In this document: in pieces, positions 8,297 to 62,058 of the stretch
How positions within the stretch are numbered: position 1 is the first letter of the stretch
Layout of the letters: each line of letters opens with the position of its first letter
Assembly (NCBI GenBank): GCA_964187785.1
Contig: OZ076409.1
Coordinates: forward strand, 5,954,001 to 6,018,000
DNA length: 64,000 nt
Reading direction: 5' to 3'
Source of the DNA: Amphiscolops sp. MND2022
Lineage: Eukaryota
Position numbers and translations under genes: made by a program
The notes under the pieces: generated by a model
The model's input: only the letters and a program-made list of their open reading frames with translations
Told to the model about the DNA's origin: nothing
Database searches by the model: none

Positions 8297-8941
8297 TCAT
8301 CCGGTTGTTGTGTTATGATTTTCGCGCGTACCACTTTTCTTTCGAAAGGCCCTAGGACTTACTTCTTCAGTGGAAACGACAAACGATGACTCATTGTCAC
8401 TTACCTCATGGACGGTTTCAAACGTTCTAGGCGTTTTGGGATCACGAATTGTCACCTTCATTACCGTGAGATCCACCAACACGTTGTATGTGCGCAGGAA
8501 ATTTCTACCTAGGAGAAAGTCCTCTGATCCAATGTGATCAGCTATGACTACGAAGTTGGTTTTCAGAGTATATCCGCCGAGCTGAAAGTTCACATCTTCT
8601 GCGATGCCAACGGTGGTGGTACTCTTGCCATTAGCAGCGAATAGTTCATTGTCGTATGGTGATAGATTCAGCTCATGTTGGGATGCGATCTTCTTGTATG
8701 CACTCAGTGAAAGAATGGAGACTCCCGAGCCGGTGTTTATCATGCCGAAAAGTGGTATCGGTTTTTGTAAAAGAGTGCCGAATGCAACGAATAGCGAGGC
8801 TCGCTTATCAATCTGTGCTTCTCCTTGTGCATCTTGCACTTCAATGTTGTAACAGCGCAGTTCTTGCCTACTCAAATAAAGGCCTTGAGAAAAGTGTCCT
8901 TCCAGGACTACAATCGCATCGAATCTCGTCCACTCCGTCAA
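8297..8941 (-). pseudogene. pol: Aspartic protease region, copy 2
   Basis: Translation identical to 4969-5613. Confidence 0.8.
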
Positions 8942-22907: not shown

Positions 22908-23097
22908 AGTAGTGAGTAAAGGGGGGGGGGGGTTTAGGTAGATTTTGAATCCTTTGCAACTTTTGCTAACATGAAAAGTTGGTAGCTAGAATTATCAGCT
23001 GAGAGTGACAGCTATATGACAACCGAGTACACAATGGACTAACCAAGTTTAACGTTGACAGTGGTTGACATTTGGCACACAGAAAGTATCTATATTA
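22908..23097 (+). repeat. Polinton left TIR
   Basis: Reverse complement of 36775-36960; G12 run versus C7 run; mismatches cluster in the inner half. Confidence 0.95.
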
Positions 23098-38617: not shown

Positions 38618-41600
38618 TGTTCCCTCTACGTCTGCCGGTTCTGTGAGAAACTATATTCATAAAAGACCAGTTGATTTCGAAATAATTTGGTCGAAATACA
38701 ATGCTACGGCTGTATGAGTTTCAATCAATGACGGAATACGAATAGGCGTGTGAGCCTGTAACGGTTTAGTGAGCACAAAATGGCAGCTTCAATATAATGA
38801 GAGCATGAACTTTATTTTCCCATTTAATTCGACGATGAAGTAATGGAATGCACTCTTTCAGTCACATTGCCCAGATTGCACAAGCATAAACTTGTGCCCG
38901 CACGTACCGTTTCCGATGGTTGAAGTCTATTTCAGAGATAGTATTGTGCGGAAATTCGGTGTTCCGTCGGCCGAGGAGAAAATTGATTGGGTGTCATTGC
39001 ATCTGTGTCACTTGGATCGGAACTAACAGGGATTAGCATTTGCGCGTTCAAGATCGACCAAACATAAGAGGGCCAGCAGAATTTCTTCCGTGAGCCGACG
39101 GTCCCCAATGACGGAGCAGAAGACCTATTTACAACAGCTGAGTAAACGCTCCCCCGACCCTCCGACCTTGAGGGTTAAACTTCCAGGTAACTTTCCTGTG
39201 GACGGGTAGTTAGGGTGCTTGCTCATTCCATTTCCATGTTTTTTGACTACTTTAGTCTCGCTCTCGACGAAATTCGTACCGTTTTCTGAATACACAACGA
39301 ACGGCGTTCCGCGGCGCGCTGAAAATCTGAGTTTTCTCATGACACATGATAAGGTGTCTAGCGACGGAATGACTTCTAGGTGTTCGGCTCGGTTTGACAG
39401 GCACGTCAATTAGAATAGAAACCACGTCTCGTTTCGCTGGGTCAGCGTACTGTCGCAAAACAAAAAGCGGGTCACATCACTCCATTTCCCGAAAATTCCT
39501 GTTCTTGTGAAAGGCAGATTTTGGAACAGAAATTAACCTTTCGGAATGTTTGCCATCATAGGCATTGACGTCTCATCCTTTATACGACGACACACCAGAC
39601 AAGCCCTTTCAGTTTTACGAAGCGTGTTCCTCAATTTGAGAACGACGAAGTGTTGTTGGACTTGAGCCCGCATTAATTCCATATCTGGGTGGTAGTGCGA
39701 TTCATGCCAGTCTTAAAGTAGCAAGTGGAAAAGCTTGTGTCGACCGTCCAGAATTATCGGATGCTTGACATTGTGAGTAAGTTCGCTATGGCGTTTGACA
39801 CAATCGGTAGATCGCGTTAGGCCGCTGGGATAAATGAAAGGTGAATCGACAAAAATACGACTTTTGGGGTACAACCAAGTTCAAGGTACAACGATTCACG
39901 AACACGATTTTGATTCAGCGAGAGAATATTCGGAATAGTCAACAATCCTTCTGTCCGGAGTTCGGAAGTGACTATGTTTCGCAAGGATGCACAGAACGTG
40001 AACCATAATGCGGGTAAAGCGCTTTCTTTGTCAGTGCCCTCTATCAGATCGTTGAGAACAGCGTTGTCGGATTTGAAACGCGAAGCAGTTCAGTCTGATC
40101 GCAACAATTCAAGGTCCAAATGCGAGCTGCTAGACTTGATTGCTTCTGCGAAGAGGCCTCTAGTCACAGCGTTCGCCGAGCTGTCGGAGTAGCAAATATA
40201 CTTCCACTGGTTTATTATTGTAAGTTCCAAAAAATTGCAAACTCTCATAGCATTAAATATGGACTTTTTTGCAGTAAATGGCAACCATCGCAAAATCGTA
40301 TTATTGGACCAAAAAAAGTGTTATGATTCGGGCTGGTAAAAGCTAGGTTAATTTCGCGACACAACCTAGCAGCTTGGAGCGCTGCTTGCAGTTCCAATTT
40401 ACGGACTGCCAACAACTTCATGGGAGCTACACGGGCTTTTCAGATGACAAACGTCAAAATTGGATTCCGGTTGGTTGCTGCACGATGTCTTTATTGTAAG
40501 AAAGCCACAGCATTGAAATCTTCCGGTGAACTGTCTCCAAATACGTGTATTTCAAAATCTACGGGGGATTGTCATTCCGCTTAGTCGGGATATCTCGTCG
40601 AACCATTTAGTAGTTTTTTGGCTATGTCAGTTGAGAGTTTGTCATCCCATTGTTGACCAGAAACGTGCCCAATGTCTTTCAATAGGAGTCTTGTTCTGAC
40701 AGTGAACGGTGCGATGAGCCCAATGGGGTTACATTCAGCAGCAACTAGGCTGAGCAGAGCTCGCTGGGTTAGAGCGAGAAGCGTCTTCATTTATTCTTCG
40801 AGGGCCAACGAGGCTGTAACTTGAATGTTCCCACTTCTGTCCATGAACGCGGGATGAATTGTCCAAACTATCTGAAAATGCTTTGGTTTGTTACGTGTCG
40901 AGTGGTAACTCACTTGCCTTCAGTTCAACTGTAAAGGCCGCAAAATTACTTGCAAACGTGGTGAGTTTGAACCTTTTTTGGCAAGCATATCAACTTATGA
41001 ACAAGCATCTCAGGTCTTTTGATTACTGTAGAGCCATTTCTGGTGTGGGGAGTGAATCTAAGATGTCCATTTAAATTGAGTGTCACGGCACGAGCTGCGT
41101 CGTTAAACGAAACTACATTATCGACGGTGGTTCTCTGTAGCGCAAAATTTGCCAACATAGGGTAGTCCTATGCCCCTAATATGTGTCGCACATAATGGTA
41201 AACTGCAATGTTGCCATGATGTCGCGATTTTGCATCCCGCCAAACAAAGCAGATGGATGGTTGATTTTGTTCCAAAACACCGGCCTGAAAAAACCCTCCA
41301 TACCTTCAATACCAGGAATAACGGCAAACAACTGCACGGGGAAACGGAGTTTGGTATGCATGAAGTTTTGTAGCAGTTCGGGTCCTGAGAAGAGTAAGTT
41401 GTTTAGCGATACTTTCGTAAACGTGGCTGCCTCATTAAGGACGCGTCTCATTTTTGTAGGTTAATAGGGATTCACCACAGGATTAGATTGAAGTATTTCT
41501 ACATGATAGCGTGCACAATCGTGGTATGTTGTATCCGTCAGGAGTTCCAGCTCTCGTTTGTCGGCAGTTGAACGCGGTTCCACCATTTCAAAGGACCAAA

Positions 41601-44600: not shown

Positions 44601-45482
44601 ATGTTCGGAAGGTGTCAGGCACTACCGCAATACACCACAGCTCTTAAACGTTTTTGATAGCGTGAAAGACCATTTTATAGTTTGGAATGGATAGCGGTCC
44701 GTTTCTGTTACTTGAGTGTTTGCTCAAAGAGTTATTCTGCACATCATGCCACATGGTAAAACTTTTCTCACGTTTGCAGTTTTTATCAACAAGAAATGAA
44801 TGGTTAACCTTTTTTTCACGGCGTTCGAGTTACAACTCTACACTTGTACAGTCAAAACCCGCTTGGTGATGCGTTTGCGAGTGTGTTTTGACAAAGTTTC
44901 TGCTGCATGATGGAGCGAGGTAACTCTTAATGTGAACACCATCAACCTTCTTTCGAGCCCGCAAAAGGTATGGCAGGGATTTTTCCCAACTTCAAATACA
45001 TGTGTTCGCTACTACAGATTAGTCCTTGAAATTGTGTTTCAATCGAATTGTTCGAGACAAAGTTTGTTTTCTTTTGGCAACCCCTCGTGTACTTAGCTGA
45101 ACCTGGTTTGTTGTAGCTGCGGCTTGGTCTGTGCACATAAAGAGCTCCGTTGATCTGATGCAACCTCAGAAAATTGCAGTGCGAAGCTGGGTAATGTGAC
45201 GTTGACTGTTGAGGAGCCACTTGAACTTCGAACAAGTTGGGTGGGAAGTAAGTGTTTCGAGGTGGTAGCTGGCTCCCGGATCGCAGCACCAAAATGTTTT
45301 CTGTAAGTCTGGTGGTACTGTGAGATACTATGTTTTTAAAATACCAATTGATTTCGAACTACCTTGGCTGAAATACAATGCTAAGAGTGTATGAGTTTCA
45401 GTCAACAACAGAAAACGGATAGGCGTTTGATCTTGCAACGGTTTAGTGAACACAAAATGGCAGCTTCAATATAATGAGGACA
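38618..45482 (-). mobile_element. Old BEL/Pao LTR retrotransposon
   Basis: Diverged 188-bp TG..CA LTRs (38618-38805, 45295-45482); TGGTGCTGCGATCC PBS-like site; degraded gag (DGNPLNWNEW), PR (ALCDSAC), RT (SLNNLLFSGPELL), Pao RNase H, integrase (HLEVIPSLDT..RRGTP..SENGTNF). Confidence 0.85.
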
Positions 45483-46718
45483 AAAACTCTATCGCTGATT
45501 AGACGATATTTATCAACAGTGCATTCAATTAAATTTCAAAAAACTTAAAATTTCAGAACTGTTAGCTGTCAATCAAAAATGATATGTCAGTTATTTTCAC
45601 TTGTCAAATAAAGTCAGAGGACAAACGTTATGTGATCATGCTTCATGGTTTTTCAAAAAAGTGAACCGGTTCGCCCGAAGCTTTCTTTGGCGGGTTCCAA
45701 AACCCATCTCTAGCTTGAATGTCAAAGTTCGGCCCGCAAAACATTAGTACTTTAAGTAGGGTTACAAACTGTTTGGATTTTTTATTGACAGACAATTGTC
45801 AACAGAAGAAATGAAAAAATCTCCGATCTGTTAACGTTATCCTCAAACTTTTTAGTCACAAGTTTTTTCAAGCTTTTGTTTGATTCCAAGATATTACTTC
45901 ATTAACACCGTTTTCTGACAACAAACGTAAGGCGACAAAATTGCAACAAGCCCAACATGATCAACTTCACCGGTTAGGTCCTACAAAAAAGTAGTGGAAT
46001 ACTAAATTTCAACTGCGCTTATAATATTACAAGTTTGAGCTATTTTTTACATCTATAGGTAGATTTTAAACGAGACTTCTTTTGCGGTTTTTGTTTTCAA
46101 ACGAACGTACGTCCTGTAAGTGTCAGACTTTTCACTGGGGAATTTTTCAACAGTTTACAAAAAATTAATCGGTTGGACTGTTGTTCATGTTTTTTTATCA
46201 CGAAACAAAAACGTGATGGGATCAATTTTACAGATAATATTAAAGACAACCATTTGCATATGTTTTTAGGTCCAAATTTGTTCGCAGCGTTTAGCGTCCG
46301 CTGCTCTTAGTAGCTGGTATTTGTTGGTCTGAATGGATGGCTGAACCCCAATATTATAACGTTTGTAATTCCGAGAAAATTATAAGGCCGCCTTTTTTAC
46401 CACTGTCAACTTCTGAACATTTTTTATCTAACGAAAAGATAACCTGTAGGGATTTTTTCCAATTAGAAATTGATGTTTTTCGAACCCGAAGGCTCCTTGA
46501 TGTTTACGAGAAAATTTACGAGAAAAATTTTCCCAACACTTGGAATTAGAAGAAAGGTTTCAGTTAGTTTTTCGAGTGTCGACGGTGCATTATCCGGGTA
46601 ATTTCTGACATTGCCAGGTTCACAAGAAGTTTCTCGAAAATTGACTTCGAGCATATTTCAAAAACTTTGCTGTTTTAGAGCCTTGGGCGTTGTTTGTTCT
46701 ATTTAGGAATAAACGTTC

Positions 46719-48444
46719 TGTAAGTAGTGTTGTCCATATGATCCCTCAGATCACAAGCGGACCTTGAGTCCTTCTTTGTAAATTTCGTATTTGCGTTCTT
46801 CCATACATTCCCAATTCCGTCCTCATTTGCGGACGTACACGGCTCAACGCCATGTTGACTCAAAGGCAAGTTTTCCACCATGTTTTGTATTTCTGGGATA
46901 AATCTCTCACTTCTGGCAGAACTAATGGCCCTGCTAATCTGTGGTTGCATTAGGCCCATCATGGCTTCCATCTCACGTGACATCCTAGCATTCATTTCTC
47001 CAGACAACATGTTAATTGACTCCACTAGCCTCCTTTCTCTAACAGGCTCATTTCTACTATCGATGTCTCTGATCTCATTCTCTTGAGATGAAGTTTCTCT
47101 GTTAGGAAAGGATTGAAAGTCTTGCTGCCTTTCTGGGACATTAATTAGGCTATCTAGATCTCTCTCTATTGAGTTTGAATTTCCTTCACCTAACTTTACG
47201 TCCATGTTGCCGTAGTCGAACAACATATCTAATTCTCTCGATTTCCTGGCTTTTGCCTTTTGTTTCCTTGTAGAGGGCATTGAAAATGATTATCCAGGAG
47301 TAAATACTTGAATTGTTCCTGTGGACAATATTAACTAGGCTTCACAGTGAATCTTGCACAATATGTATAAGAGCAACTGAACAGTAACCGTATTATAAAG
47401 ACAATTGTCTTTCAGGGTCAAGCTGGGCGTATTTATACCCAAATTACCATGACACTCATAATTCTAAAGGTCATGTTACTAAAAATAACTTACAAGTTAT
47501 AAATAAAACACGTCACTGCTAAAAATAGCATCGTTACGTCACAAAGGTCATTTGAAGGCGGGTAGATCAAAGTGCCTTTTTAGGCCATGTGACGAAGAGG
47601 TAATGATATTCATATGCAGCAAACTATATGCAAACACTTTTACATGTAGATAAAATTCATGTATAACACAACTGATGAGTAGCTGAAAAGGACCTATAGT
47701 TCCTTTTAACAGCGCAAAGCAACATTACATTTGAACATGTTCATGAAGGCCCTATACGGCTATTGCCCGTTAAGGTTCTCTAATTTAATCCCAATCATAA
47801 CACGGAAAGCAACACTACATGTTAGCAATATACATGTCTGGTCATTACATGGGGGGGTTACTTGTGTCTTTCCATCACTAATTAATTGAGACACCAATTT
47901 CATATAATAAGTACACAGCATTTGAATGCTTATTGCGTCAACCGGCCGTGATAGGCTTTATTTACTGTATAGCACAAAGACACTTAGTACAGTGAGTAGG
48001 GACAGCTAAGTCACATAGCCGCTTTCGTCCCATTTGTAATTACTGAATATTATTCAAGTACAGCATCAAAGCACAGTAAGGCCGGCAAAGGTAATTGGCC
48101 GTATTGGTCCATTCTAAATAGCACTAGCGCAGTTACGTAATAAGTAATAAGATGGCTGTTATAAACTGCACTCTGATTGGTCAATTCACCATGGACGGCT
48201 TAGTTAGCTATACTGGACAGGCAAACATTTGAACACGTTTCCTTTCTGCCTGTCAGTATAGCTTGCTGTCAAATGTATTTTACATAGAGAATAATAAAAC
48301 AATTCACCGATCAACATTACATATTCAAAATAATACTAAATGTTTGAAAGTTTTAGTTTTATAATGGGAGCGTCCCAGGTAGAGCAATTGGCCTCGTATG
48401 GTCAATTGTATAGATGTTGCCATCGCAGGCGGCAGCCTGCGACA
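46719..48444 (-). repeat. 3' LTR of element 2 (includes a copy of the gag 5' end, 46719-47280)
   Basis: Direct repeat of 59944-61669; preceded on the minus strand by a short PPT AGGGGGAG. Confidence 0.95.
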
Positions 48445-49196
48445 CTCCCCCTGGTAGTAATAGGAAAGTGCCCACCTGCATTCCTTCCATAAAAGATCTT
48501 TTGCGCGCTTCTAGTTGATCTGCCGATTCTCCCAAAATGGCTGTCTTGCGCAAATAATCTGTGACTGCTTCACTCTAGATTTGTAATGTCGATTTCCCAC
48601 ATATCACACAGTCTGAGTAATTTGCCATTGGATTGTTCGTCTCAATACCCATTCCTTGAAAATGGTTTGTAATCGAGTCCAAGGACTGTTGGGAAGTTCC
48701 GGATTGACCGTCCGCCGAGTAAAAATCTTGAATTGGTCCCTGCTCTTCAGGTGGGGGCGACATCGGAGTATCCACCATAGGAATGATTTCCCTGCACAGC
48801 TTGATAGGGTGATTATTGTGCACTCGATCGTCTCGCCTTATTGGGCCATTTCCTCTCCCCAATGAGAAAAAGGATTGGTCAAGAGTAGGCCTCACTGTAA
48901 AGCTCGTCCCGGAGGTCCCGTACCTTGGTAAGTTGTAGTGGGGGGCTTCATTTCTAATTTTCAGCGCTGAGGGAGGACCAGGTATTGGGATGGGCGATGA
49001 CAATTGCATCTCGACACATTGGGCCATCATCATGATTTCGTCATCTATTTCCTCGTCTTCCGATGACAATTGAAGATCTAGCACTGAAGTCATGCTCAGG
49101 TCACACATTTCTTCCTCTTCGTCACTAGATAGGCAGATTATGTCTACACCTGCGGCCGCTGCGCCTTGAAAGTCTTCAGGGTATCGGGCGGCCATG
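48359..49196 (-). pseudogene. Accessory ORF3 (SIM-like acidic motifs, CxxC) running across the PPT into the 3' LTR; one in-frame stop at 48575
   Basis: MAARYPEDF..VDIICLSSDEEE..VLDLQLSSEDEE..CVICGK..RKRSFMEG; homologous to ORF 63695-63973. Confidence 0.7.
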
Positions 49197-49841
49197 AATT
49201 TTGCTTTTATGATTTTTTTAAGCAATTTTTAAAAGGAATTGGATAGAGCTTTAGGAATTTTCAAACTTTGCTAGTCGACCGTTTTTTGAAAGCTTCAGAA
49301 GAGAGAATGATGACTTTCCCTTACTGAGTTCGTCTGAAATATTTTCAAGTCTCGTGATTCCTTCCCGGGGTTTTGTCTTTCCCGGCAATCGTTTCACTGA
49401 TAAATTCTCTTAAACAGTCTTTGATGATTCTAATAAACCGCCTTGTTTACATCATCACTTCAGTCGTTTGTCTGATGCGGCAAAGAGCCATCAATGACAT
49501 CATTGAGTGTTTATCTGCTCTTGATATCCACTTGAGAATTTCAAGAGTGGGTAATCAAGTTCTAAGGCCACGCGCGGCGCGTCACCGCGATAGCCAATAG
49601 GAATCGCCTTCAGAGTCTGCATTTCAAAATGGCCGAATTAATAATAATCCAAATAAGGAAATAAATGAGATAAAATAATAAATGTATAGAATAATAAATC
49701 CATGGTGATACAAAAGTTTTGAAAAATATTTTTGTGGATTTCTCTGACAGATTCCATCCACAGAATAATCCTCATAATTGTAAAATTATTTGACATCAAA
49801 TCCAGTTTGCCACGAACTCCAACTTTGTTCTTGCAGATTTA

Positions 49842-52800
49842 ATGGACAGCTCTGGCGTTGCCGTCTTCCCACCAGTAGCGCCAAATGTTATTCTTGACCC
49901 CAATGTTTCCTGAATTTGAAGGGGAATTTCATGCAGATTCGGGACACAGTGACTCTGAACAAGAACAATATCGCTCTAAAGTGGACGGAGCCGACAGACA
50001 ACTCTCAGCCAAGGGTAAATTAATCATAAAGAAATACTTTCAGGAAACTCGTCCCATTGAGTTACCTAGGGACCACCCTGTCATTGCCCTCACTGCAGAT
50101 GAGATGCATGCCGTCCTAAGGACTGTCTCTGACGAATCTGTACTCTCGTCGTATCTTATGATGAAGTCCTTATTGCTTCATGCTACCCGAGGCGTTCCTC
50201 AAGACAAGAAAAGGTCCTTGCCTAAACGGTGCGCAACACCCGCTCGGCCAGACGTTTACAGTTCAGGAGATGAAAGTAGCTTTGGGGGACACTCGTCAGA
50301 TGGGAATACCAGTGGGGTCTTCAATACTGATGAGAATCCTTATCAATTAGGATCCATCTCTGGCACCTATTACCTGAGTGAAGCTGACCCTTTAACACTC
50401 ACCCCTAAGACCCGTACAGGCGGGGTAGCATGTACGTCCCAAGCAGAGACTGTGACTCCAACTTCTGGGAGCGGGTACAGTAGCACTGATTATCAGCCGC
50501 TCTCAACGCTTGGCCGACTGCCCGAACAGAAAACCCAGGTCAGAAGCCCACCCCGGAAAAGGCGCAGATTACTTAGTAAGCCCGGAAAGGTGATGAAAGA
50601 CGCCTATTTCAAAGGCATCCAATGGACTCGAACTTTTGTGTCCGGCCCCGTTGACCATGTCCACAATAAGTTCAAGTTTTACTGCTGATATGTAAAACCA
50701 ATGTTTCCATCTTCTCCAAGGGCGCCAGGGAGATTCTCAGACAGTATAAAACTGAAGGACATCTCCGAAAAGATCAAAAATGGAGATACATCCACCTGCA
50801 AGAAACCGATGAGATTACTGGAGTCACTACCCACCAAGTCAGAGGCAAAGACGCTTATGTCCTTACTCCCATTGAGCTAGAGCGTGAAAAGCCTCTATTC
50901 TTGGATATTCCCCTGGTCGAAACAGGTGATCGTTTTCCATTCTACGACGATTACATGGCCAGTATTGGAGGATTTACCAACCCCGATGATCTTCGTACCG
51001 GTACCCTCATCTCGTTGATTGGGACTTTTGTGCCAAGGGATGGTAACATCTCGCTCCTAAAAAGTTTGTGGACTCGCGTGGGGGTGTTTACTAATCACCA
51101 AGCCCTGTTCTCTTCATTCGATTGGGGATAAGCTACTCTTACAGTAAGTAGTGATTTTGTTTGCAATATTGCTGGTAAGACCCAAAATGGCCTTTGGTTA
51201 CAACGTCCCTTTACAACTTGGTGTTTTGTTTTAGAATATCTTCCACCACGTTTTTATGAGGGGACTTGCTGATATCTCTACACACATCATGGCCACTGAG
51301 ATGTACTCCATTGAGTTCACTACAGAGGGTATCTACCGCTGCATGTCTGTTCGTTTCTGGAGGGATGATTCACTCGTTCGGGTTGAACTGCATCGGCACC
51401 AACAAGCTGAGTCCTATCCAGGCTGTTATTTAACAGCTATCTCGTGCCTGCTGTCATTTGTATCTTCAAAGCCCAACCTTGTTAGCATCTCCGGGTGCTT
51501 TTCCATGATCTTTAAAACTTTGGAAACCTGCGGACTGTTCAGCCATGGGATCCAATATCCATTTCGCTTCGAGGTCTTCTCTCTTCCTGAGTTGATGCAT
51601 CCTGAGGCATTGCAGACTGGTTACATCTTCGGCCGAATTGACATCTTCTCGCAGCTGAAGTTCTTAGTTGTCTTCCTGCGAGGCGGACTCAGTCAGCCTT
51701 GGGCCCTAAAGAGTCTTGAACTTTGCAAGGTTAATCACTTTCTTGATCATAGTTTTTTCATTATACATAGTCATGATGTTCCGATGTCGACAAGCCTTTC
51801 TGGTCAGTTTCATAATGGCAAATAGGAACTCTTTTCATTTGATCGCTTTCCATAGGCCATAACAGCATGTGATGTGTTTAATTGAAGAAGATCCCCACTA
51901 TATGCACTGAGCTCGGTAAAAACTGGAAGCCCATCAAAGACTACCTTACCAGTAAGGCCCCTACTCAAAAGATGCAAGGAGTCAAGAATAAGGTAATTAT
52001 CTGTCGCTTTTCTTCTAGTCTATGTCTCTTGCACTGATTCGTTGTGTTTTTGGGTGTTGTGATACTCATGAGCCGATTTCTTTTTCAGCCTCAAAGCCTG
52101 GAATGGGAGATTATCCTAGACGACTTCTTCACCATCAAACTTGAATTTCTCTCATTGCTGGTGCGCGATTGTTAGTCATTTTCTTTGTATTTGTTTGAAG
52201 TAACGGGGTAGAAGCCCTACTAAACCACGTGCCGGTCACGGCTTTAGCCATAACTATGTTTGTAGCAGCTTAAGGTATTTGGTAGGTTCTGGTAATTTGC
52301 ACCTAAACCTGGATTTGTTTAGATACCAAGTGTTTTGAGCGCAGTCTGTCCGGGCGACGGGATGCAACACTCTTCATTTACGGCCAATATTGTAGTTTTG
52401 TCCGTCGGTTGTGTCACCGTGCCGTGCCGTCTTGCCTAAATGCATTCCGAGCGATACAGACTGGACTGGCCTCTTGCAATTGTGCCTTGACGATCTGAGG
52501 TTAATGTCATGTCGCGATTTCCTGAATCAACTCAAGTTAACGTGTGACCTCGATCAGGCTTACCAAGCAAAATTGGAGAGATCTCGCGGGGAGAGCCCTG
52601 CACCAGCTAATCAGGATGAGCTGGTCACCAAGGAAAGAGAGACCTTTGGGACAGAAGCCCGGACGTATATAGTCTCTCTTCTAGGGTCTTTGCTTCGAGA
52701 TATCCACTTCTCTGCAAATATTGTGCACGGCATGGGCAGTTTCGATCCTCATGTGTTGTTGACATTACCTCTTGAACAGGCATCTTTCTGTTTCAACGCT

Positions 52801-53427
52801 TTGTACGACAGTTTTCGACTCCGCGGTTGGGTGGACGAGTCTTCCCGAAGTGACTGCCGTGATGAGTACTTCGAGTTCGTGGATTATTTCCGTGAAACTT
52901 ATCCTTCCATTACGTTTTCACCTGGGACTGTTGCCGACATATTGGACTTCCTTATCCCAATTCCTGCCTTCCGAAGCCGCACTAGACTGTTCCACTTAAT
53001 CCGGTTGTGCTGCCTTTGCATTATTGAGGAACATCAGGCCCTTCCTGCCATCAAGTTTCAGGATGTCGATACCTCTAGTTCCCGTTGCCGCCTTTCTGCT
53101 GTAGTGCTGCCTGCTCAGTCCTACCTGACGAATTGCCCTGGAGCTGTTGCTGTTTGCACTACTGAGGCCGCCTTGACCAACTATAAAGAATTGGAGGGGC
53201 AGTTTAGTTCTGGACAGACTCTTACTACTGCCTTCAAGAATTTAAAAGGAACTCCTGTGGTTGGCACTAGCACAGCGTCACGATCATCCTCTGTATCGAC
53301 TTCTGCTGGACGCAAGATAAATTGGGCTGCTGGTCAAGCTCAGAAGTTGGCCTATTTCGGCGACATCCCACCTAGTGAGCTTTCAAAGACTGTCCAGAAA
53401 TTACGAGAAGGAAGCTCTAAAGACTAA
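49842..53427 (+). pseudogene. Antisense multi-exon gene inside element 2; BED-like zinc finger and hAT-transposase-like traces
   Basis: ORF blocks 49885-50688, 50901-51131, 51256-51825, 52411-53427; in-frame intron 51144-51234; further donors ~51730 and ~51993, acceptors ~51855 and ~52088; AATAAA ~53560. Confidence 0.75.
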
Positions 53428-53595
53428 ATGTACATTTGTCATTCTAGACTCTTGATTTGTAAATTTCAGTTCTGTTTCTTGTTTTAGTATTTATATAGTT
53501 AGTTTCTTTTAAGTCATGGAAGTCGGAGTAGTCCCAGTAAAAAACATGCCTTCTTGGGCAATAAAATGAGTAGGGACATAATTTAACATTTCTGA

Positions 53596-56500
53596 CTAAT
53601 ATCTGTACTCATCAGTAAAGTTAGGGTTGGGGTTAGGTCGAAGATTATATTTCCCTCCTCTAGGGCTAGATGTTTCATTTTCTTCATTATTTACAATGTC
53701 CGATATTCCGGGCACGGAATTATCCTCTCCCCTGTTAGGAGAATTTCCAGTACTATCGTTGTTTTCATTCAGTGAATCCGTGGGCGTGTCACCAGTATTT
53801 TGGTTATTTCGGCTAGTGGCCGTACTCGGCCTTTTGATTTCGCTGCGTTGTTCATCCTTTGCTGCTTGCTCGTTGACGTCATTTTCGTCATGCAGTATTG
53901 GTGCGTCTCGGCTAGCGGTCGTACGCGGTCTTGTTTCATTCTCAGTAGTGGTGCGTTCATTCACTTCGAAGACGTCATTTGCGTCTCGTGCGAGTATGCC
54001 TCCTCGGCTGGTGGCCGTTCTCGGCCTTACCGCGTCGTCATTAGCATCATCATAAATGACATAATCATCGTTTGAGCCGCTACCATTAGTGTCTGCCTAT
54101 TGTAATTCTTCATTCGGAATGTCGTCCTGTCTCGGCTCGAAGACTTGATTGTCAAAATCAGCTTCCCATGAGATGGTATATAAATCATCTTGCGGAATGA
54201 TTATTTCATCATCAGGTTGCAATTTCTCTTTGGAATATTTGTCCTCTAAAGGCGTGTTAGGAACGAATTTTTTCAGACGAATTCGGTGTAATATCTGCGT
54301 TTTATTTGTATTCAATCGACGAACAATATAATTGTCGTTAGGTAATACTTTTTCAATTCGATAAGGACCAATCCAACGGTAATCCCTGAAGGGTATTTTC
54401 GATCCTTGATTATCTGCTTTAGGCTGCAAGATGAAACAGAAATCTTGTTCATTCAGATGGCCTGCCTTGGCTTTGCGGTCATAATATTCTTTATATTTTA
54501 AGTATGACTGCATAATGTTTTGTTTCGTTTTGTCAATCAGAATTTGTGTTCGTTGTTGTAGTTCTTCCGCGAATTCTGTTGTAGGCAAGAAATCCTTGTT
54601 GGGATTATTCCCAAGTTTGTGATCTAGGACGTTGTATGGAATCCGTCCATGGAAGACCTTGCTTGGCTCACAGCCAATACTAGAATGGTTGGTAGTATTA
54701 TAGTTGAGTACAGCCAGTGGTAAGTATTTATGCCATTGACGGCGGTATTCCCCTGAAGCCATTTTCAAATTTATTTTGAGTGAAGCGTGAGTCCTTTCAA
54801 GTTTGCCAATCGTTTGCGGGTGTTTAGTAGTTGCGCATTTCAGTGTAATTCCGAGGATTTTCGTTATTTCATCAATGATTTTGGATGTAAATGCGGTTCC
54901 TTTATCCGTGATAAGTGTAGTTGGCAAATAAGCGTGTTTGGTCATAATGTCGATCAAGACCTTCGCTGTGATTGAAGCGGTAGCTTCAACTAACGGGTAG
55001 GCGAACAGGTATCTGGAGAAAACGTCTATTGCCGTCATTATCGGTTGGTAGCCACCACTTGTTGGTAGGTTTGGTAACAAGTCAATTTGCATTGCGTCCT
55101 CAGGACCAAGGTCCCATTAAGGCAAGTTAAGTAATTCTGGGGTTATTGAGTTGTTTGGAACTCGTTTGTCTTTTGCACAAATTTCACATCCCTCTACCCA
55201 TTTTTTGACATGTTTAGCTATTCCTGGGTAGTAGTATTTCTGGCGTATTTCTTGTAGCATTTTGGATATGCCCGGATGTTTGTGCGCAGTTCCGTGCAGT
55301 GCCTGTGAGAGCTCTCTCAGTAAATGTTTTGGAAAGAGTATTTGGTGGTATTTGACTTGCCCCGTTTCGTCATAGTACTGTCGCGTGACTATTTCGTCTT
55401 TGAGGACTAGTCGGTCGAAATTGTGAAGGTAGTGTTTGTATCGGATATCCTGCTGAAGTATTTCTTCAGAATAATCTTAGTTCTGAATTTTAGCCTTGAG
55501 TTGGCGCAATATAGGGTCTTTGGATTGTTCAAGAAGAATCTGATTCATTCTGCGCAATTTTTGGGTAAAGTTTGTGATTTCGTCTACTATGTTTTCAGAT
55601 ATTGCGTCAATTTGGATTACGCCTTCGTGGTCGATCAGGTTGTTACGGCTTTGTTTTTTGCGTTCCCAAATCTGGGCTTCCGTCTCTTCATCTTGTTCCG
55701 TGAAGAAAATTTGTTCCTCTTCTGCCACGCCTGCCGATTAGACATTGACCTCAATGGGTTTAGTTTCTATGTCTTCGCGGATTTTTAGGACTAGTTCCTC
55801 TCTGGGGTCCATTTCCATGCGAGATAAGTAGTCGGCTGCTGTGTTGTTTTTCCCTGGGATATGTGCTATGACAAAGTTGAATTGTATTACATAGTCACAT
55901 GCGTTCCAGAGTGTCGGAGGAATTATCTTTGTCTGAAAGAATCTCGTAACCGATTTATTGTCGGTAAGGATGGTGATCGGTTTGGGCGCTCTCCAAAAAG
56001 TATGTCCAAATTCTTTGAATGCGTAATAGATTGCTAAGAATTCTTTGGCATATATTGACATTTTGAGTTGCGATGGCGTAAAGGTTTTTGAGCCATATGC
56101 GATCGGAGCATATGATTTTTTGACGGATGATTATTTTTGGTGTGGGTCGTCCTCTGTGAGTATGGCATAGCCAGCCGCTGTGAAGCTAGCATCAGTCATG
56201 AGGACTAGTTGTTTGTTCGGTAAAGGTTGTTTAAGAGCCAATTGGCTACACTTGTCAAGGTCTCGATTGATTTCATTAAATTGTTGTACTAGCTCTGTGG
56301 TCACTAGGACCTTTTCGTCCTTTTTGAGAAGTTGGAAGAAAAGGGCTAGTTTTTCAGATAGTCTTGGAATGTAGTTCCTGTAATAGTTCAGGAATCCAAG
56401 GTATCGTTGTAGCGCTTTCTTGGATCTTGGGAATTTGGTTTGTTCAAGGAAGTTTGTTATTCTTTCCTTTTGTGATTTGACGCCCTCAGGGGTGATTGTT

Positions 56501-57200
56501 CTCCCTAGAAAGTCAATTTCCGTTGCCCCAAAGTGGCATTTGTGCATTGTTAGCTTGAGGCCTGCATGTCTGATGCATTCAAACGTTGCTCTCAAATTTT
56601 TGATAAGATGATCAGGATCATTGGCAGCTATGCCGATGTCGTCCACACATTGATCGGCTTTGATGACTTTATCGAGGTATTCTCGCAAAAAGCTTGAAAA
56701 GGCTGATAATGCTCTGCTAAGGCCTTGAGCTAGTCTTCTATAAGCAAACGTGCTGCTTGCAAAGTTGAACGCAAGCATCTCAATGGACCTCTGGTCCGCT
56801 ATTGGAAGGCAATGGTACGCCTGTGAACAGTCAAGTTTACAGAATAATTTCTTGCCCGCCATATGCTGTGCGGCGTCCGTTAAGGTGCTAACTGGATGAT
56901 TGTTATTTATATAGTCATCTGAAATATGGTTATTGATTTTCCTTAAATCGACTAAAAGTCTCAGTTTCCCATTCGTCTTTTTCTGTGCAAATATGGGACT
57001 AGCATATTTAGAGAATGGCAATGTAGTTATGATGCCATATTTGTGTAAAAGAGCCAGTTCGACGAGGATGTCCTCTTTTAAAGTGACTGGAGTAGGTAGA
57101 CCTTGGCTATATGCAGGCGAATTGTCCTTAGGAGTTAGTTTTACTGTGAATTCTTCATTCATTCCTATGTCAAATCTGTGTCTGGCAAATATATCGTGAT
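53596..57200 (-). pseudogene. pol: Pol of element 2: RT, RNase H, integrase and repetitive C-terminal tail (disrupted)
   Basis: LRLLVDLRKIN, CVDD (YVDD damaged by deletion), MTDAS, HHCC, IDLL..TDKG..GKLER; tail with RPRT(A/T)xSR repeats ending GGKYNLRPNP. Confidence 0.92.
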
Positions 57201-57206
57201 ATTCGA

Positions 57207-58808
57207 CTAGAAGCGATTCGTTCTTCGTGTAGAAGCGATTTCGTGTTGATGTAGCTTCGAGTCTTTCCAGTCAAAGTTGCTAAGGATTTTACGTCGTGAC
57301 TCCTCATCATTTTGAGGGTTTAGTTGCTCGGCCTCTTGGAGGTTGCGTAGTTCTTGAAGGATCCGTCTCTGGATAGGAGTGTGAGAATCCTCGTCCCCTG
57401 GGTTTTCTGGTGTTGGAAACCAGTACTGTTCGTATTGATCGTTGTTTCGGTTAGCCTTGAGTAGACTACTGACATAGTAGATGACATCTTCTTCATTTTT
57501 GTTGAGAAGATGCCAAGTGGACACCGGGTCTATTGGTTTAACGTGTTTCATCTGTTCCGGCGTTAGTACTGAGAAGTTTGCTATGTGTAGTCCTCTTTCA
57601 ACCTTGTAAGGTTGATCTGAGAAATTAATGATATGGACATTAACGGTTCCATTAGTCAATGTGACTATTGCGGCACAAAATGTGATATCGCCCTCCTCAT
57701 GGAGGAGATCACTGGGTTGTAACACTCTTCTGACCGTGTTTCCATTGTAGATTTGTGATTTGATTTCTACTAGAGTACGGTCATTGGGTGGTATTGTGAC
57801 ATCGTCTGGGTTAAGAATAGGTTCCAAGACGTTAGAGTATTTGTGGTCAGCCGTTTTGGAGAAATAGGGGAAATTAAGGATGCCTTGTCGCATGTCCAGG
57901 ACTGTGTGATTCCTTCGAAGGAACATTGGTCCTATGATGGGGCCAGTCAGTTTTTCCTTTACTATAAAGATTTCATGAAATTCAATATCTCCCACCTCAA
58001 ACTTGAGTTCAACAGTGCTCTTTGGGGTTTCCAATTGTCCATTTGCGACCATAATTTGAAATATTGGAGCAGGACCTTCTTTGACAATGGATTGAGGCGC
58101 CAATAGGCGTATTTTCCTGAGGTCTGCATCCGGAATTGCACTAGATAAGGCTCCAGTGTCTAAGAGGCCGTCTATGGTTAGTTCTCCAAAGTCCATCGGG
58201 AAATATAGCATCCGTTTTTTGTGTTTGAGTCCGAGGTTCGTGGATAAGGGTATGTACGCTGGTTCTCCTTCTTTAGTGATTAGGACATGTAAGAAAGCTG
58301 ATTCGTCCAATAGGCCTGGTTCTCCTTCTTTATTTAGATCCTCTATCTCCTGCTCATTGGTGATTTCAGAGTTAGGTTGCCACAATTGGATGAGTGCCCT
58401 TGTTAGCTTGTTATCTAGGACTTCAGGGTCATCCTCGTCGTCTGTTGGCGGATGATCGTCACATTTGAATTGCAGTTCTCTTTGGTCATAGAGGGAATTG
58501 TCCCAGTATGGATCAACTCCATATTCAGGATCAATGTAGTGGGGGTCATAATCTTCAATTTGTTGAAGTGGTCTGAATCGTGATTCAAAAGCTGTAGTAT
58601 AGTCTATGTCGTAGTATCTGTCTGGGCGGTCGTTGTGGACCATTTTGTACTTTTTAATGTAAGTTTTCTCCATCTGTTGCTGCCAGACAACTGATGGTGT
58701 TCCGTTGATGTCACTCTGTGATTGCTTGTTGGCGATGTTAGCTGGGTCCGATATGACATATTTTCGTATCGACATTTGGTCAGAAATTTGGAGTCGTGGC
58801 GAAATTAG
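57207..58808 (-). CDS. pol: Pol N-terminus: acidic spacer, aspartic protease, dUTPase-like fold
   Basis: LLDTGA, PIIGPMFL; open in the -1 frame from the slippery site. Confidence 0.85.
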   Translation of the reverse strand, partial: LISPRLQISDQMSIRKYVISDPANIANKQSQSDINGTPSVVWQQQMEKTYIKKYKMVHNDRPDRYYDIDYTTAFESRFRPLQQIEDYDPHYIDPEYGVDPYWDNSLYDQRELQFKCDDHPPTDDEDDPEVLDNKLTRALIQLWQPNSEITNEQEIEDLNKEGEPGLLDESAFLHVLITKEGEPAYIPLSTNLGLKHKKRMLYFPMDFGELTIDGLLDTGALSSAIPDADLRKIRLLAPQSIVKEGPAPIFQIMVANGQLETPKSTVELKFEVGDIEFHEIFIVKEKLTGPIIGPMFLRRNHTVLDMRQGILNFPYFSKTADHKYSNVLEPILNPDDVTIPPNDRTLVEIKSQIYNGNTVRRVLQPSDLLHEEGDITFCAAIVTLTNGTVNVHIINFSDQPYKVERGLHIANFSVLTPEQMKHVKPIDPVSTWHLLNKNEEDVIYYVSSLLKANRNNDQYEQYWFPTPENPGDEDSHTPIQRRILQELRNLQEAEQLNPQNDEESRRKILSNFDWKDSKLHQHEIASTRRTNRF

Positions 58809-60505
58809 TTTTTTGAGTCAGGCTTTTTTGAATTGGATTGGCCTGATGTAGATGTTGTTGGTTTTTCGTTTTTAGTGCGGGTGTCTTCGTCTTGAGGGGG
58901 CTCCGTGTCGTTGGAGTCATTTCTATTCCGTTTTGGACGAAGGTGGGCACCTTCAGCACGCCAACATTTCTCTGCTGGGTGGTTAGTTTTGTTGCAGGTG
59001 GGACATTCTGGATAAGTTGGGCATTGAGGCTTCTTGCCATTTTTGGCCTCCAATTCCTTCTTCTTTTTCAGTTTTGGACAATTTTTCCAGAAATAGTCTT
59101 CAGCCTTGCAGTACGAGCATTGGTTATTTTGGTTGGTATCAATGCCAGTGGATAATAGATTTTCCGTTTTGCCTGACGATGACACCATTGTGGCTATGGG
59201 TAGGTCGTCAGATTCTTCTAAGGCGTTTAATTCAAGCTTTCTTTCCAATTGTGCCACAATCTCCTCGTAGGTCCCGTTTTCCAGTCGGGCCATATTCACG
59301 GATCTTTTGAGTTTTGGTGGTAACTTAGCATATAGGAGGCTATCGATCATGCTCTTGGCGTTTTCCCCAAAAGCTTTCTCGGCACCCTGGTTGAGTTCTT
59401 CGATGAAGTCGGGTAGTTTCATTATGTTGGGGTCGAAAATGAGTCTGTGCCACTTGTGTTTGGCTGTGGCTTGAGACTCGGGTTTAACGTACTTGCGACG
59501 AAAAATGGCGAGTACGTCTTCCAGTGTTTGACGGTTTATAGAGTTTACATTTCGGAAAGTTTGTAGGGCTCCTCTTCGGAGCAATGAATGAAATTGGTTT
59601 ATTTTCATTTGTTCCGTCATAGCGGGCTGCATCTTTATCATTGTATGAAATAAGTCTTCAAACAATTCAAATTTTTCTGCTTTGCCGTCAAATGTCATGG
59701 GGTTCGTAGTGACTGGTCTAATTGTCATTGTCTGTGGTTTGTTCGTGAGATTTACCAGGACATCGGCCAGTCGGTTGATGGGGTCTTGTGGCTGTTCAGC
59801 TGTAACGGGCTCCGCCACTGGTAGAGTTGTATCCAGAGTTGTATCACGCGCGGATTCTTGTCTCTGAAGGTCTGGCTGAGAGTGAATTCGTCCTGTGAGG
59901 AATTCAGGAATCGGATGTTGGAGTTCGTTAGCTCCTGTCACTATGTAAGGAGTGTTGTCCAAATGATCCCTCAGATCACAAGCGGACCTTGAGTCCTTCT
60001 TTTTAATTTTCGTATTTGCGTTCTTCCATACTTTCCCAATTCCGTCCTCATTTGTGGACGTACACGGCTCAACGCCATGTTGACTCAAAGGCAAGTTTTC
60101 CACCATGTTTTGTATTTCCGGGATAAATCTCTCACGTCTGGCAGAACTAATGGCCCTGCTAACCTGTGATTGCATTAGGCCCATCATGGCATCCATCTCA
60201 CGTGACATCCTAGCATTCATTTCTCCAGACAACATGTTAATTGACTCCACTAGCCTGCTTTCTCTGACAGGCTCATTTCGACTATCGATGTCTCTGATCT
60301 CATTCTCTTGAGATGAAGTTTCTCTGTTAGGAAAGGATTGAAAGTCTTGCTGCCTTTCTGGGACATTAATTAGGCTATCTAGTTCTCTCTCTATTGAGTT
60401 TGAATTTCCTTCACCTAACATTACGTCCATGTTGCCGTAGTCGGACAACATATCTAATTCTCTCGATTTCCTGGCTTTTGCCTTTTGTTTCCTTGTAGAG
60501 GGCAT
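58805..60505 (-). CDS. gag: Gag of element 2 (566 aa), starting inside the 5' LTR
   Basis: FDGKAEKFELFEDLF capsid-like region; knuckles CSYCKAEDYFWKNC (degenerate) and CPTCNKTNHPAEKC. Confidence 0.9.
   Translation of the reverse strand: MPSTRKQKAKARKSRELDMLSDYGNMDVMLGEGNSNSIERELDSLINVPERQQDFQSFPNRETSSQENEIRDIDSRNEPVRESRLVESINMLSGEMNARMSREMDAMMGLMQSQVSRAISSARRERFIPEIQNMVENLPLSQHGVEPCTSTNEDGIGKVWKNANTKIKKKDSRSACDLRDHLDNTPYIVTGANELQHPIPEFLTGRIHSQPDLQRQESARDTTLDTTLPVAEPVTAEQPQDPINRLADVLVNLTNKPQTMTIRPVTTNPMTFDGKAEKFELFEDLFHTMIKMQPAMTEQMKINQFHSLLRRGALQTFRNVNSINRQTLEDVLAIFRRKYVKPESQATAKHKWHRLIFDPNIMKLPDFIEELNQGAEKAFGENAKSMIDSLLYAKLPPKLKRSVNMARLENGTYEEIVAQLERKLELNALEESDDLPIATMVSSSGKTENLLSTGIDTNQNNQCSYCKAEDYFWKNCPKLKKKKELEAKNGKKPQCPTYPECPTCNKTNHPAEKCWRAEGAHLRPKRNRNDSNDTEPPQDEDTRTKNEKPTTSTSGQSNSKKPDSKN
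58808..58814 (-). promoter_or_regulatory. -1 ribosomal frameshift slippery site A AAA AAC
   Basis: Immediately before the gag TAA; the -1 frame reads KKLISPRLQISDQMSI into the protease ORF. Confidence 0.8.
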
Positions 60506-61669
60506 TGAAAATGATTATCCAGGAGTAAATACTTGAATTGTTCCTGTGGACAATATTAACTAGGCTTCACAGTGAATCTTGTACAATATGTATAAGAGCA
60601 ACTGAACAGTAACCGTATTATTAGGACAATTGTCTTTCAGGGTCAAGCTGGGCGTATTTATACCCAAATTACCATGACACTCATAATTCTAAAGGTCATG
60701 TTACTAAAAATAACTTACAAGTTATAAATAAAACACGTCACTGCTAAAAATAGCATCGTTACGTCACAAAGGTCATTTGAAGGCGGGTAGATCAAAGTGC
60801 CTTTTTAGGCCATGTGACGAATAGGTAATGATATTCATATGCAGCAAACTATATGCAAACACTTTTACATGTAGATAAAATTCATGTATAACACAACTGA
60901 TGAGTAGCTGAAAAGGACCTATAGTTCCTTTTAACAGCGCAAAGCATCATTACATTTGAACATGTACATGAAGGCCCTATACGGCTATTGCCCGTTAGGG
61001 TTCTCTAATTTAATCCCAATCATAACACGGAAAGCAACACTACATGTTAGCAATATACATGTCTGGTCATTATATGGGGGGGTTACTTGTGTCTTTGCAT
61101 CACTAATTAATTGAGACACCAGTTTCATATAATAAGTACACACCATTTGAATGCTTATTGCGTCAACCGGCCGTGATAGGCCTTATTTACTGTATAGCAC
61201 CAAGACAATTAGTACAGTGAGTAGGGACAGCTATGTCACATAACCGCTTTCGTCCTGTTTGTAATCACTGAATATTATTCAAGTACAGCATCAAAGCACA
61301 GTAAGGCCGGCAAAGTTAATTGGCCGTATTGGTCCATTCTAAATAGCACTAGCTCAGATACGTAATAAGTAATAAGATGGCTGTTATAAACTGCACTCTG
61401 ATTGGCCAATTGACCATGGACGGCTTAGTTAGCTATACTGGACAGACAAACATTTGAACACGTTTCCTTTCTGCCTGTCAGTATAGCTTGCTGTCAAATG
61501 TATTTTACATGAAGAATAATAAAACAATTCACCAATCAACATTACATATTCAAAATAATACTAAATGTTTGAAAGTTTTAGTTTTATAATGGGAGTGTCC
61601 CAGGTAGGGCAATTGGCTTCGAATGGTCAATTGTATAGATATTGCCATCGCAGGCGGCAGCCTGCGACA
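59944..61669 (-). repeat. 5' LTR of element 2
   Basis: Direct repeat of 46719-48444; followed by PBS-like TAGTGACAGGAG inside gag. Confidence 0.95.
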
Positions 61670-62058
61670 CGTTCACTTCCTTTGTGCTGCGGCAACCTCA
61701 GTAATGTTGACTGGTTTTCTGCATCATTAGTTGTGTGAACTCCTAAGAAGTGATCTCCTTCAAAACGTCTCCCATTAAACTCTCCGTCAATTGCAAACTT
61801 CATGATTTTACACCTGCTCTTGGAGAAGTTGATAGTAACACACATAATCTATACAGTTTTTTTCTTGAAACTCTTATAATTCTAATGTGGGGCATGATGT
61901 TTTTGTAGCATAAAGGGCTTGGATTTAAACTGCATACAATAAGAAACGACGTACTAATGCTGTATGATAGCCATATATTTAGAGGAAAAATCTTATTGTT
62001 CGATGTCCCAGCAATCATGATCACAAATTGTCGGTTTCTCTTTCTCGACAATTGTTAC

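Follow-up and report, generated by a model that had tools for sequence, protein, structure and literature searches.

Structure of the antisense gene

A stretch of 64,000 nucleotides from the genome of Amphiscolops sp. MND2022 (assembly GCA_964187785.1, contig OZ076409.1, positions 5,954,001–6,018,000 of the forward strand; hereafter the window) harbors a Ty3/gypsy-type long terminal repeat (LTR) retrotransposon of 14,952 bp on its minus strand (46719–61670). The space of ~5.15 kb that separates the pol gene from the 3' LTR of this element contains a gene on the plus strand, antisense to gag-pol, and an open reading frame (ORF) on the sense strand, which we call ORFx (48359–49228). An earlier note, made from the letters of the window, had pointed to this antisense gene, and had interpreted its product as a possible, catalytically dead derivative of a hAT DNA transposase that was domesticated by the retrotransposon. 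Our analysis confirms the observation and partly supports the interpretation.

In intact relatives of the window copy, the antisense gene consists of five exons and four GT–AG introns, and encodes a protein of 1211 amino acids. This gene model comes from an alignment of 20 copies. Substitutions between subfamilies occur mostly at every third base in four stretches, with a shift of frame from one stretch to the next, and the sequence separating these periodic stretches shows indels without periodicity. Donors of the classic type, and acceptors that have a pyrimidine tract, occupy the exon borders in the alignment. In the intact copy L014, translation would start at the ATG at 1039, and the exons (1039–2805, 2897–3391, 3520–3654, 3749–3830 and 3983–5139) join in a single frame of 1211 amino acids, where only one GT is usable as a donor of intron 4 that keeps the frame. 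Exon lengths are constant in most of the 20 copies (1767, 495, 135, 82 and 1157 nt), with intron lengths varying over 89–93, 126–128, 93–98 and 140–154 nt, and 73 of the 80 introns are bounded by GT and AG. The frame is fully open in five of the 20 copies, and a further three contain one stop each. The introns are located at the same places in three distant lineages, with other lengths, as far as their borders can be read by eye; donor 4 of copy D73, read in the same way, is offset or non-canonical.

Database homologues agree with this model. They share a start of the form MD-S-Y/F-SGS, and in two of them the reading continues across an intron 1 that has the same position. Longer database forms of the protein, spliced and annotated, were not among the scored matches, which is weak evidence.

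In the window, all parts of the gene downstream of the start region can be recognized. A remnant of exon 1 (49835–51143) is followed by intron 1 (51144–51234, 91 nt), which is in phase 0 because the full exon 1 measures 1767 nt. The earlier note had recognized this intron, and its borders match intron 1 of the 20 aligned copies to the base. Exon 2 (51235–51729), identified by substitution periodicity and predicted fold, has kept its full length of 495 nt and encodes the RNase H-like domain discussed below. The alignment further defines intron 2 (51730–51855, GT..AG, 126 nt), exon 3 (51856–51992), which measures 135 nt in intact copies and has a 2-nt insertion near 51877 in the window, and intron 3 (51993–52088, GT..AG, 96 nt). 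Together with the joined frame, it also defines exon 4 (52089–52170, 82 nt) and intron 4 (52171–52322, GT..AG, 152 nt, phase 1). Exon 5 (52323–53427, including the stop codon), located by ORFs, alignment and fold, encodes an all-helical domain. The earlier note was thus right about a plus-strand gene split by introns, but it placed only one intron precisely instead of four, and the start of the gene lies further upstream. An AATAAA at 53560–53565, ~30 nt from the pol stop, converges on the pol end as the note had described. It is conserved in other lineages, where it was found 145–160 nt past the antisense stop in those examined.

The window copy of the antisense gene is dead. It has lost ~975 bp by a deletion (junction at 49831–49835) that took part of the upstream spacer as well as the start codon and the initial 152 codons; this deletion is not found in other copies, including those of its own subfamily. 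What remains of exon 1 lacks 2 nt near 49900 and 1 nt near 50685, where the Cx2C..Hx5H finger is cut, and has a TAA immediately before donor 1. Exon 5 gained 5 nt near 52417 and lost 57 nt at 53215. These lesions bear out the stops and frameshifts mentioned in the earlier note. The pol gene of this copy is broken as well, and its ORFx carries an in-frame stop.

Membership of the element family and selection

The antisense gene is a regular component of the retrotransposon family. Searching the genome (1.07 Gb, 1929 contigs) at the DNA level with the interval of the earlier note (49842–53565) yielded 78 pieces at 39 scored places, of 1097 candidates, with 76–96% identity. The same integrase adjoins the antisense gene without interruption in all 19 other loci (from window position 53216 to ~54620–54720), and 18 of these 19 loci also match the window upstream of the gene (49305–49835). 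The resulting 20 copies fall into three subfamilies that are ~80% identical to one another. Three more full-length copies have the same internal layout, with LTR pairs that are 99.8, 99.3 and 98.3% identical.

The family extends well beyond these copies. When the genome was searched at the protein level with the last exon, 7460 first-look candidates emerged; all of the 106 that were scored matched at E ≤ 1e-149, with 57–100% identity, and most of them lack an internal stop. Three distant lineages, with 57, 70 and 73% identity, all share the layout LTR-ORFx-E1..E5-pol-gag-LTR. Here, too, ORFx is located on the minus strand and exons 1–5 on the plus strand, and the LTR pairs are 98.5–99.8% identical. 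Hence, the antisense gene is present in six of six full copies from different lineages. Neither the window nor an intact copy contains inverted repeats bracketing the antisense unit, only scattered matches of 12–28 nt, and a search for 8-bp duplications around this unit found none.

Substitution rates show that the coding sequence has been under purifying selection. Between subfamilies, dN/dS was 0.08–0.10 for the whole coding sequence (dS 0.75–1.17) and 0.02–0.05 around the zinc finger, whereas the introns had diverged by a p-distance of 0.18–0.38. A coding sequence with third-position periodicity and a low dN/dS across copies occupies the space between the pol end (~53595) and the 3' LTR, and it is integral to the family (19 of 19 loci and three of three divergent lineages). 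Taken together, the alignments strongly support that the antisense gene belongs to the retrotransposon family and bears introns that would be spliced.

Features and predicted fold of the antisense protein

From the N- to the C-terminus, the antisense protein comprises ~430 disordered residues, a conserved basic patch (PRKRRR), a zinc finger, an RNase H-like domain and a helical domain. The N-terminal ~430 residues are poorly conserved, acidic and Ser-rich, and are disordered in the predicted model. The zinc finger is of the form Cx2C-x16-H-x5-H, and its ligands C457, C460, H477 and H483 are invariant or nearly so in the family alignment. A generic C2H2 model, zf-C2H2_ZN292, was matched below threshold by 41 of 56 exon-1 relatives, with a best E of 7e-4. 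Databases contain 90 family representatives of exon 1, 35 of exon 2 and 459 of exon 5, all of them unnamed ENA entries.

The fold of exon 2 was predicted from the homologue P0052, in which exon 1 and exon 2 are joined by intron 1, translated in frame. The prediction used alignment A4, which is deep in exon 2 only; alignments A3 and A5, in which long homologues were mixed with homologues of exon 2 alone, were dropped since MAFFT had misaligned them. Mean pLDDT of the P0052 model was 46.8, with values of 70–91 for residues 620–740. In this model, exon 2 has the fold order beta1-beta2-beta3-alpha1-beta4-alpha2. The top 50 matches in VIA-align were almost all RNase H-like or actin-like-ATPase folds (Z 5.1–7.6), and include Pelota, type III pantothenate kinase, actin relatives, lentiviral integrase cores, RuvC and Argonaute. 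The chains of the hAT transposase Hermes reached Z 5.7–6.0 and gave the longest alignments (119–123 residues), with model residues 618/620–750 matching Hermes 133/136–268. Foldseek ranked Hermes 8edg_A first (E 5.4e-4, probability 0.93, 335 columns); this chain was the only one to reach E ≤ 0.001, and seven more Hermes chains were among the top 32.

The model of exon 5, made with alignment A1, is all helical with a mean pLDDT of 80. Foldseek returned no match to this model at E ≤ 0.001. In VIA-align, it matched Hermes 363–609 over 186 residues (Z 5.0, rmsd 6.7), which by itself is within the range of noise, and Hermes was the sole listed match that spans nearly the whole model. The models of exon 2 and exon 5 thus match successive parts of Hermes in the correct order.

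The position where a hAT transposase would have its second catalytic Asp, at the end of beta4, is occupied by Ser-Gly-Cys in 30, 30 and 31 of 31 sequences, respectively. At beta1, a Glu is conserved in 24 of 25 sequences, and the offset of the Hermes alignment places Asp180 there. These assignments are based on secondary structure and alignment offsets instead of a residue-level superposition, and the third catalytic residue is unmapped. A DDE triad, by which a hAT transposase is recognized, was not found. The earlier note's claim of a missing catalytic Asp therefore holds for the second position, but the first is taken by a conserved Glu. Similarly, the hAT-core-like run of the note corresponds to an RNase H-like fold with Hermes as top Foldseek match, but no sequence method identifies it as hAT. 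Overall, the models give good support to an RNase H-like core that lacks an intact DDE triad, and moderate support to a dead-transposase fold.

Origin of the antisense protein

In its order of domains and predicted fold, the antisense protein most resembles a hAT transposase (Hermes) minus at least the second catalytic Asp. Descent from a hAT transposase would be the best single reading of these models; it is unproven, and we rate it only a shade above even. A donor would have been at hand, because the genome is rich in true hATs: there are 2215 first-look candidates for the hAT dimerization domain, some with open frames of 597–697 amino acids, and true hATs of this genome score up to 82 bits with the model of this domain. 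As the best overall explanation, we consider it fairly probable that the antisense gene encodes a transposase-derived, non-catalytic, nuclear DNA-binding protein of a complex Ty3/gypsy-type element, in which the nuclear location, the DNA binding and the hAT origin are all inferred.

Several results weigh against this explanation. Pfam had no match to the exon translations, neither to zf-BED nor to hAT; it did not find the hAT dimerization domain (PF05699) in 64 exon-5 relatives or zf-BED (PF02892) in 56 exon-1 relatives at E ≤ 0.1. For the BED-like finger of the earlier note, which has the Cx2C-x16-H-x5-H pattern with conserved ligands, only the generic C2H2 model responded, below threshold, and BED is a candidate label for it. 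No hAT counterpart was demonstrated for the C-terminal LFHLIRLCCLC segment that the note had named. When PDB sequences were searched with profiles of the antisense protein family, nothing was found. A comparison by hhalign of the exon-5 family with six hATs of this genome, which took in their C-terminal halves only, gave a probability of 0.07%, while the PF05699 model recognizes these same six hATs at 77–80 bits. Look-alikes in the ESM Atlas scored 0.76 and 0.79 at best, below the useful range; one of them, a 'CGG triplet repeat-binding protein 1-like' at 0.75, likewise below this range, is a lead only. The structural matches have their own weaknesses. The VIA-align scores of Hermes (Z 5–6) are tied with those of many RNase H-like folds, and the exon-5 score of 5.0 is inside the tool's stated noise range for helical domains. 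The Foldseek alignment with Hermes has an rmsd of 23.8 and comes from a model with a mean pLDDT of 46.8. Moreover, P0052 is only ~38–45% identical to the family of the window, and ~30 of its residues (611–639) are translated intron sequence within the stretch that was aligned to Hermes 133–175. The finger region was folded from two sequences only, which produced a low-confidence beta-beta-alpha unit with a pLDDT of ~55. The conserved Glu of beta1 would leave some scope for a catalytic role. Finally, transcription and splicing of the gene are deduced from conservation alone, the start site and the use of the poly(A) signal are likewise unproven, and any function is suggested by analogy only.

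An alternative reading accepts the antisense gene as real and as the element's own, but attributes the RNase H-like domain to a source other than hAT, such as an integrase-like or actin-like-ATPase-like protein or a new combination, so that the Hermes matches merely reflect a common fold. This would fit the VIA-align scores of Hermes (5.7–6.0), which are no higher than those of Pelota, pantothenate kinase and retroviral integrase cores (5.6–7.6), and it would fit the failure of sequence and profile methods to link the protein to hAT or BED and to detect a hATC domain. Yet Hermes is the top Foldseek match, stands alone at E ≤ 0.001 and has the longest alignment, and the exon-5 model, which is independent, follows on with a match to the later part of Hermes. 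hAT transposases are built of a finger, an RNase H-like fold and a large helical domain, and the antisense protein has this same layout. A non-hAT origin thus seems rather unlikely to us, although it carries real weight. If the protein had stayed enzymatically active, as a nuclease or recombinase with a variant active site that includes the beta1 Glu, and gave the element a second activity at the DNA level, this would agree with the conservation of this Glu (24 of 25) at the place assigned to Hermes Asp180 and with the very strong constraint on the core domain. However, Ser-Gly-Cys is invariant where the second Asp is expected, the 4-bp target duplication and the LTR ends fit insertion mediated by the integrase, and 8-bp duplications and inverted repeats were not found around the antisense unit. 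We give an active enzyme scarcely any credence.

Another possibility is that the segment represents an independent hAT DNA transposon nested in a single copy of the retrotransposon, for the space between pol and the LTR is non-essential and tolerates nested insertions, and the protein has a transposase-like fold. This is contradicted by the presence of the segment at the same place beside the same pol in 19 of 19 other loci, and in all six fully examined copies from different lineages with near-identical LTR pairs. Bracketing inverted repeats are lacking, and none of the 150 scored genomic matches to the hAT dimerization domain falls in these loci. By the criteria of the earlier note itself, such an insertion would show as a segment that other copies lack, or that has its own inverted repeats and target duplication. 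With the segment in other family copies and without inverted repeats of its own, a nested insertion is rejected, and its probability is next to nil. One might also suppose that the gene is a passenger, captured once from the host and useless to the element, or that only its antisense RNA matters, for instance as a source of double-stranded RNA. Capture of genes by LTR elements is known, and antisense transcripts alone can regulate retroelements, according to the relevant parts of a review (PMC7264820). Purifying selection on the protein between lineages (dN/dS 0.08–0.10 at dS near 1) is at odds with both ideas, as are frames that stay open in copies 57–100% identical, fixed exon lengths and conserved splice sites. 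In addition, selection among transposing copies acts only on what helps the element, which speaks against a mere passenger. Both ideas strike us as very improbable.

ORFx, the spacer and exchange of the 3' module

ORFx (48359–49228, minus strand, identified from ORFs) encodes ~290–300 amino acids in intact copies, for instance at L024:5308–6213 on the minus strand. It crosses the polypurine tract into the 3' LTR, and in the window it is interrupted by an in-frame stop at 48575–48577. With a dN/dS of 0.10–0.22 between lineages, ORFx is also under purifying selection. Pfam had no match to ORFx. Its acidic, Ser-rich stretch contains ..DIICLSSDEEEE.., which we presume to resemble a SUMO-interaction motif and regard as a candidate.

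ORFx and the antisense gene start in divergent directions from a common spacer, which measures 1049–1289 bp upstream of the antisense ATG in intact copies (~1.1 kb) and was shortened to a remnant at 49229–49834 by the ~975-bp deletion in the window. A spacer core of ~330 bp (L014:~250–520; window ~49560–49830) is conserved far beyond the neighboring coding sequence, even where the antisense proteins of the lineages are only ~50% identical. The core contains a GC-rich stretch, a CCAAT, an AT-rich run and the motif AAAATGGCGG, which we take to be YY1-like. It is probably an internal promoter, judging from this conservation, and perhaps serves both genes bidirectionally. A 5'-UTR intron may have its donor at a conserved CAG|GTAAGCTATCTGG located ~190 nt upstream of the antisense ATG. 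Rfam had no match to the intact gene and its spacer.

The 3' part of the element has a different history from gag-pol. When D57 and D73 were compared with copy C3, the gag and pol proteins were 95–96% identical, but the antisense proteins only 44–74% (copies L030 and L031, and L034 and L035, versus L024 and L025). For gag and pol at 95% identity, a range of 44–57% was also obtained for the antisense protein. The subfamilies of the window and of C6 rank in the reverse way for gag-pol and antisense identity. Nucleotide identity to C3 changes abruptly at the antisense stop, from 0.56–0.77 inside exon 5 to 0.80–0.98 directly past it, and U3 can be aligned between lineages in short blocks only. Comparison of the lineages shows that the 3' module was swapped between them, and the module behaves as an exchangeable unit. 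Possibly, a single template switch near the pol end during minus-strand synthesis moves U3, ORFx, spacer and antisense gene together, which would place the swapped module in both LTR contexts.

Possible role of the antisense protein

Since the introns are antisense to the genomic RNA, they are not spliced from the RNA that is reverse-transcribed, and hence are inherited by every new copy. The survival of antisense introns through reverse transcription is also the principle of intron-marked retrotransposition reporters. The antisense protein would probably be made by integrated copies and act in trans on the family, for the element's own use. An acidic disordered N-terminus, a basic patch and a zinc finger point to a nuclear DNA-binding factor, to which the disabled transposase-like core could contribute DNA binding and oligomerization.

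Within the explanation of a transposase-derived, non-catalytic DNA-binding protein, our first guess, by analogy and held with less than even confidence, is that the protein may be a transcriptional regulator of the element's promoters. As a second guess, it might be a tether for integration or to chromatin, and it might also act as a repressor of copy number; these two analogies seem improbable to us, and to the same degree. In a broader scenario, an animal LTR lineage would have domesticated a hAT transposase as a disabled, intron-bearing gene, held in antisense orientation to let its introns outlast reverse transcription. Together with an internal divergent promoter, ORFx and U3, this gene would form a regulatory cassette that passes between lineages in one piece through a single template switch at the pol end, resulting in a retrovirus-like 'complex genome' outside the retroviruses. 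This scenario is possible, but we lean slightly toward doubting it.

Domesticated transposases usually lose their catalytic residues and retain their DNA-binding parts, and several host genes are derived from hAT transposases, e.g. the ZBED family. The antisense protein shares with Hermes and other hAT transposases the succession from an N-terminal zinc finger through an RNase H-like core to a large helical domain. It differs from them by the lack of detectable sequence similarity and of a hATC domain by Pfam, and by its disordered N-terminus of ~430 residues. Furthermore, the unit has no inverted repeats or 8-bp duplications, and its apparent domesticator is a retrotransposon instead of a host. 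To our knowledge, domestication of transposases has so far been described for host genomes. If the Hermes-like reading is true, one class of mobile elements would have domesticated the enzyme of another.

Comparison with known antisense genes

Antisense additional ORFs between pol and the 3' LTR (aORF-3R) have been reported from Ty3/gypsy elements of plants, including gene23 of maize Grande, rice RIRE2 and Silene Retand, where TRP28-domain proteins occur in 97% of the Retand clusters (sections on additional ORFs in PMC7264820, PMC11963269). A nuclear regulatory role has been proposed for them in the same sections (PMC7264820, PMC11963269). The present gene fits the definition of an aORF-3R, as its coding sequence lies opposite gag-pol, between pol and the 3' LTR. 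It shares the position and orientation of the plant ORFs, and their presence in most copies of a lineage; moreover, an upstream promoter of its own is reported for Grande, and the plant proteins are thought to be nuclear DNA-binding regulators (same sections of PMC7264820, PMC11963269). Conversely, these sections describe plant hosts, and proteins with TRP28 or no known domain (PMC7264820, PMC11963269). The word 'intron' is absent from both papers (PMC7264820, PMC11963269). The gene described here, in contrast to the plant aORF-3R, resides in an animal host, has four introns, and encodes 1211 amino acids with a zinc finger, an RNase H-like domain and a Hermes-like fold.

A fungal counterpart, brtn of Boty-like elements, was reportedly described by Zhao et al. 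in 2011 in Virology 417:248. As cited in the corresponding part of PMC8365987, the Boty-like Ty3/gypsy elements of Botrytis cinerea carry brtn as an additional gene in antisense, and the present gene resembles it in being accessory, antisense and situated between pol and the 3' LTR. Antisense genes also occur in deltaretroviruses, including HBZ of HTLV-1, as the parts of two papers dealing with them mention (PMC7264820, PMC11963269). In these accounts, HBZ resembles our gene as an antisense protein gene of a reverse-transcribing element that has its own promoter in the 3' part and encodes a nuclear, regulatory product. By the same accounts, it differs by encoding a small bZIP protein from a promoter in the 3' LTR, whereas the element studied here probably has an internal promoter and encodes a large transposase-like protein. 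HBZ is spliced.

Among the animal LTR elements of the full-text literature, which leaves subscription journals and Repbase notes outside its coverage, none was found to carry an antisense gene that bears introns or has a transposase-like product. What was known before were antisense accessory genes of LTR elements in plants and in one fungal family, with function unknown. Our results add an animal example. This family numbers thousands of copies, including many young ones, and its antisense gene is large, multi-exonic and strongly selected, with a product whose recognizable fold makes its function testable. The block-wise exchange of the 3' module amid near-identical gag-pol sequences points to modular evolution, as in complex retroviruses. 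There is also a consequence for annotation, because the plus-strand exons of such antisense genes will be called host genes unless the family is recognized.

Other features of the element and the window

Self-comparison of the window revealed one pair of long direct repeats, the LTRs, each of 1727 bp and 97.1% identical. The 3' LTR (46719–48445, minus strand) and the 5' LTR (59944–61670, minus strand) have TG..AC termini, and the element is flanked on both sides by a 4-bp target-site duplication, GTTC, at 46715–46718 on the left and 61671–61674 on the right. The pol gene (53596–58817, minus strand), identified from ORFs and Pfam, encodes protease, reverse transcriptase, RNase H and integrase, and is split into several broken ORFs in the window copy, in which Pfam detected rve. 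In the pol of an intact relative (1750 amino acids), Pfam located a protease at residues 207–301, RVT_1 at 612–777 and RT_RNaseH at 843–973, followed closer to the C-terminus by Integrase_H2C2 at 1165–1220 and rve at 1241–1336. This relative therefore has the domain order PR-RT-RNase H-IN by which Ty3/gypsy elements are recognized. A weak match to dUTPase is located between the protease and the reverse transcriptase of intact pol (residues 339–419; L025:1586–6835, minus strand), with E 6e-4 and 20 bits, slightly below the cut-off of 22.

The gag gene (58805–60514, minus strand) is open in the window copy. Its ATG (60505–60503) is located within the 5' LTR, ~560 nt before the inner end of this repeat (window 59944–60505), and the same was observed in copies C3, D57, D70 and D73. 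The first ~187 residues of gag are thus encoded by the LTR, and the primer-binding site lies inside the gag reading frame. Because the gag ATG is inside the LTR, every 3' LTR has a decoy gag start, and in the window the 3' LTR repeats the first ~187 gag codons. A tRNA scan of the element found none.

Outside the element, the window contains a tandem duplication of 3.3 kb (2625–5950 and 5957–9278; 99.6% identical) in a GC-richer, T-skewed part. Other repeats are a direct pair at 38618–38801 and 45295–45478 (82% identical) and an inverted pair at 22908–23097 and 36960–36775 (92% identical). Broken ORFs between 40000 and 45000 suggest that more decayed mobile elements are located directly to the left of the LTR element.

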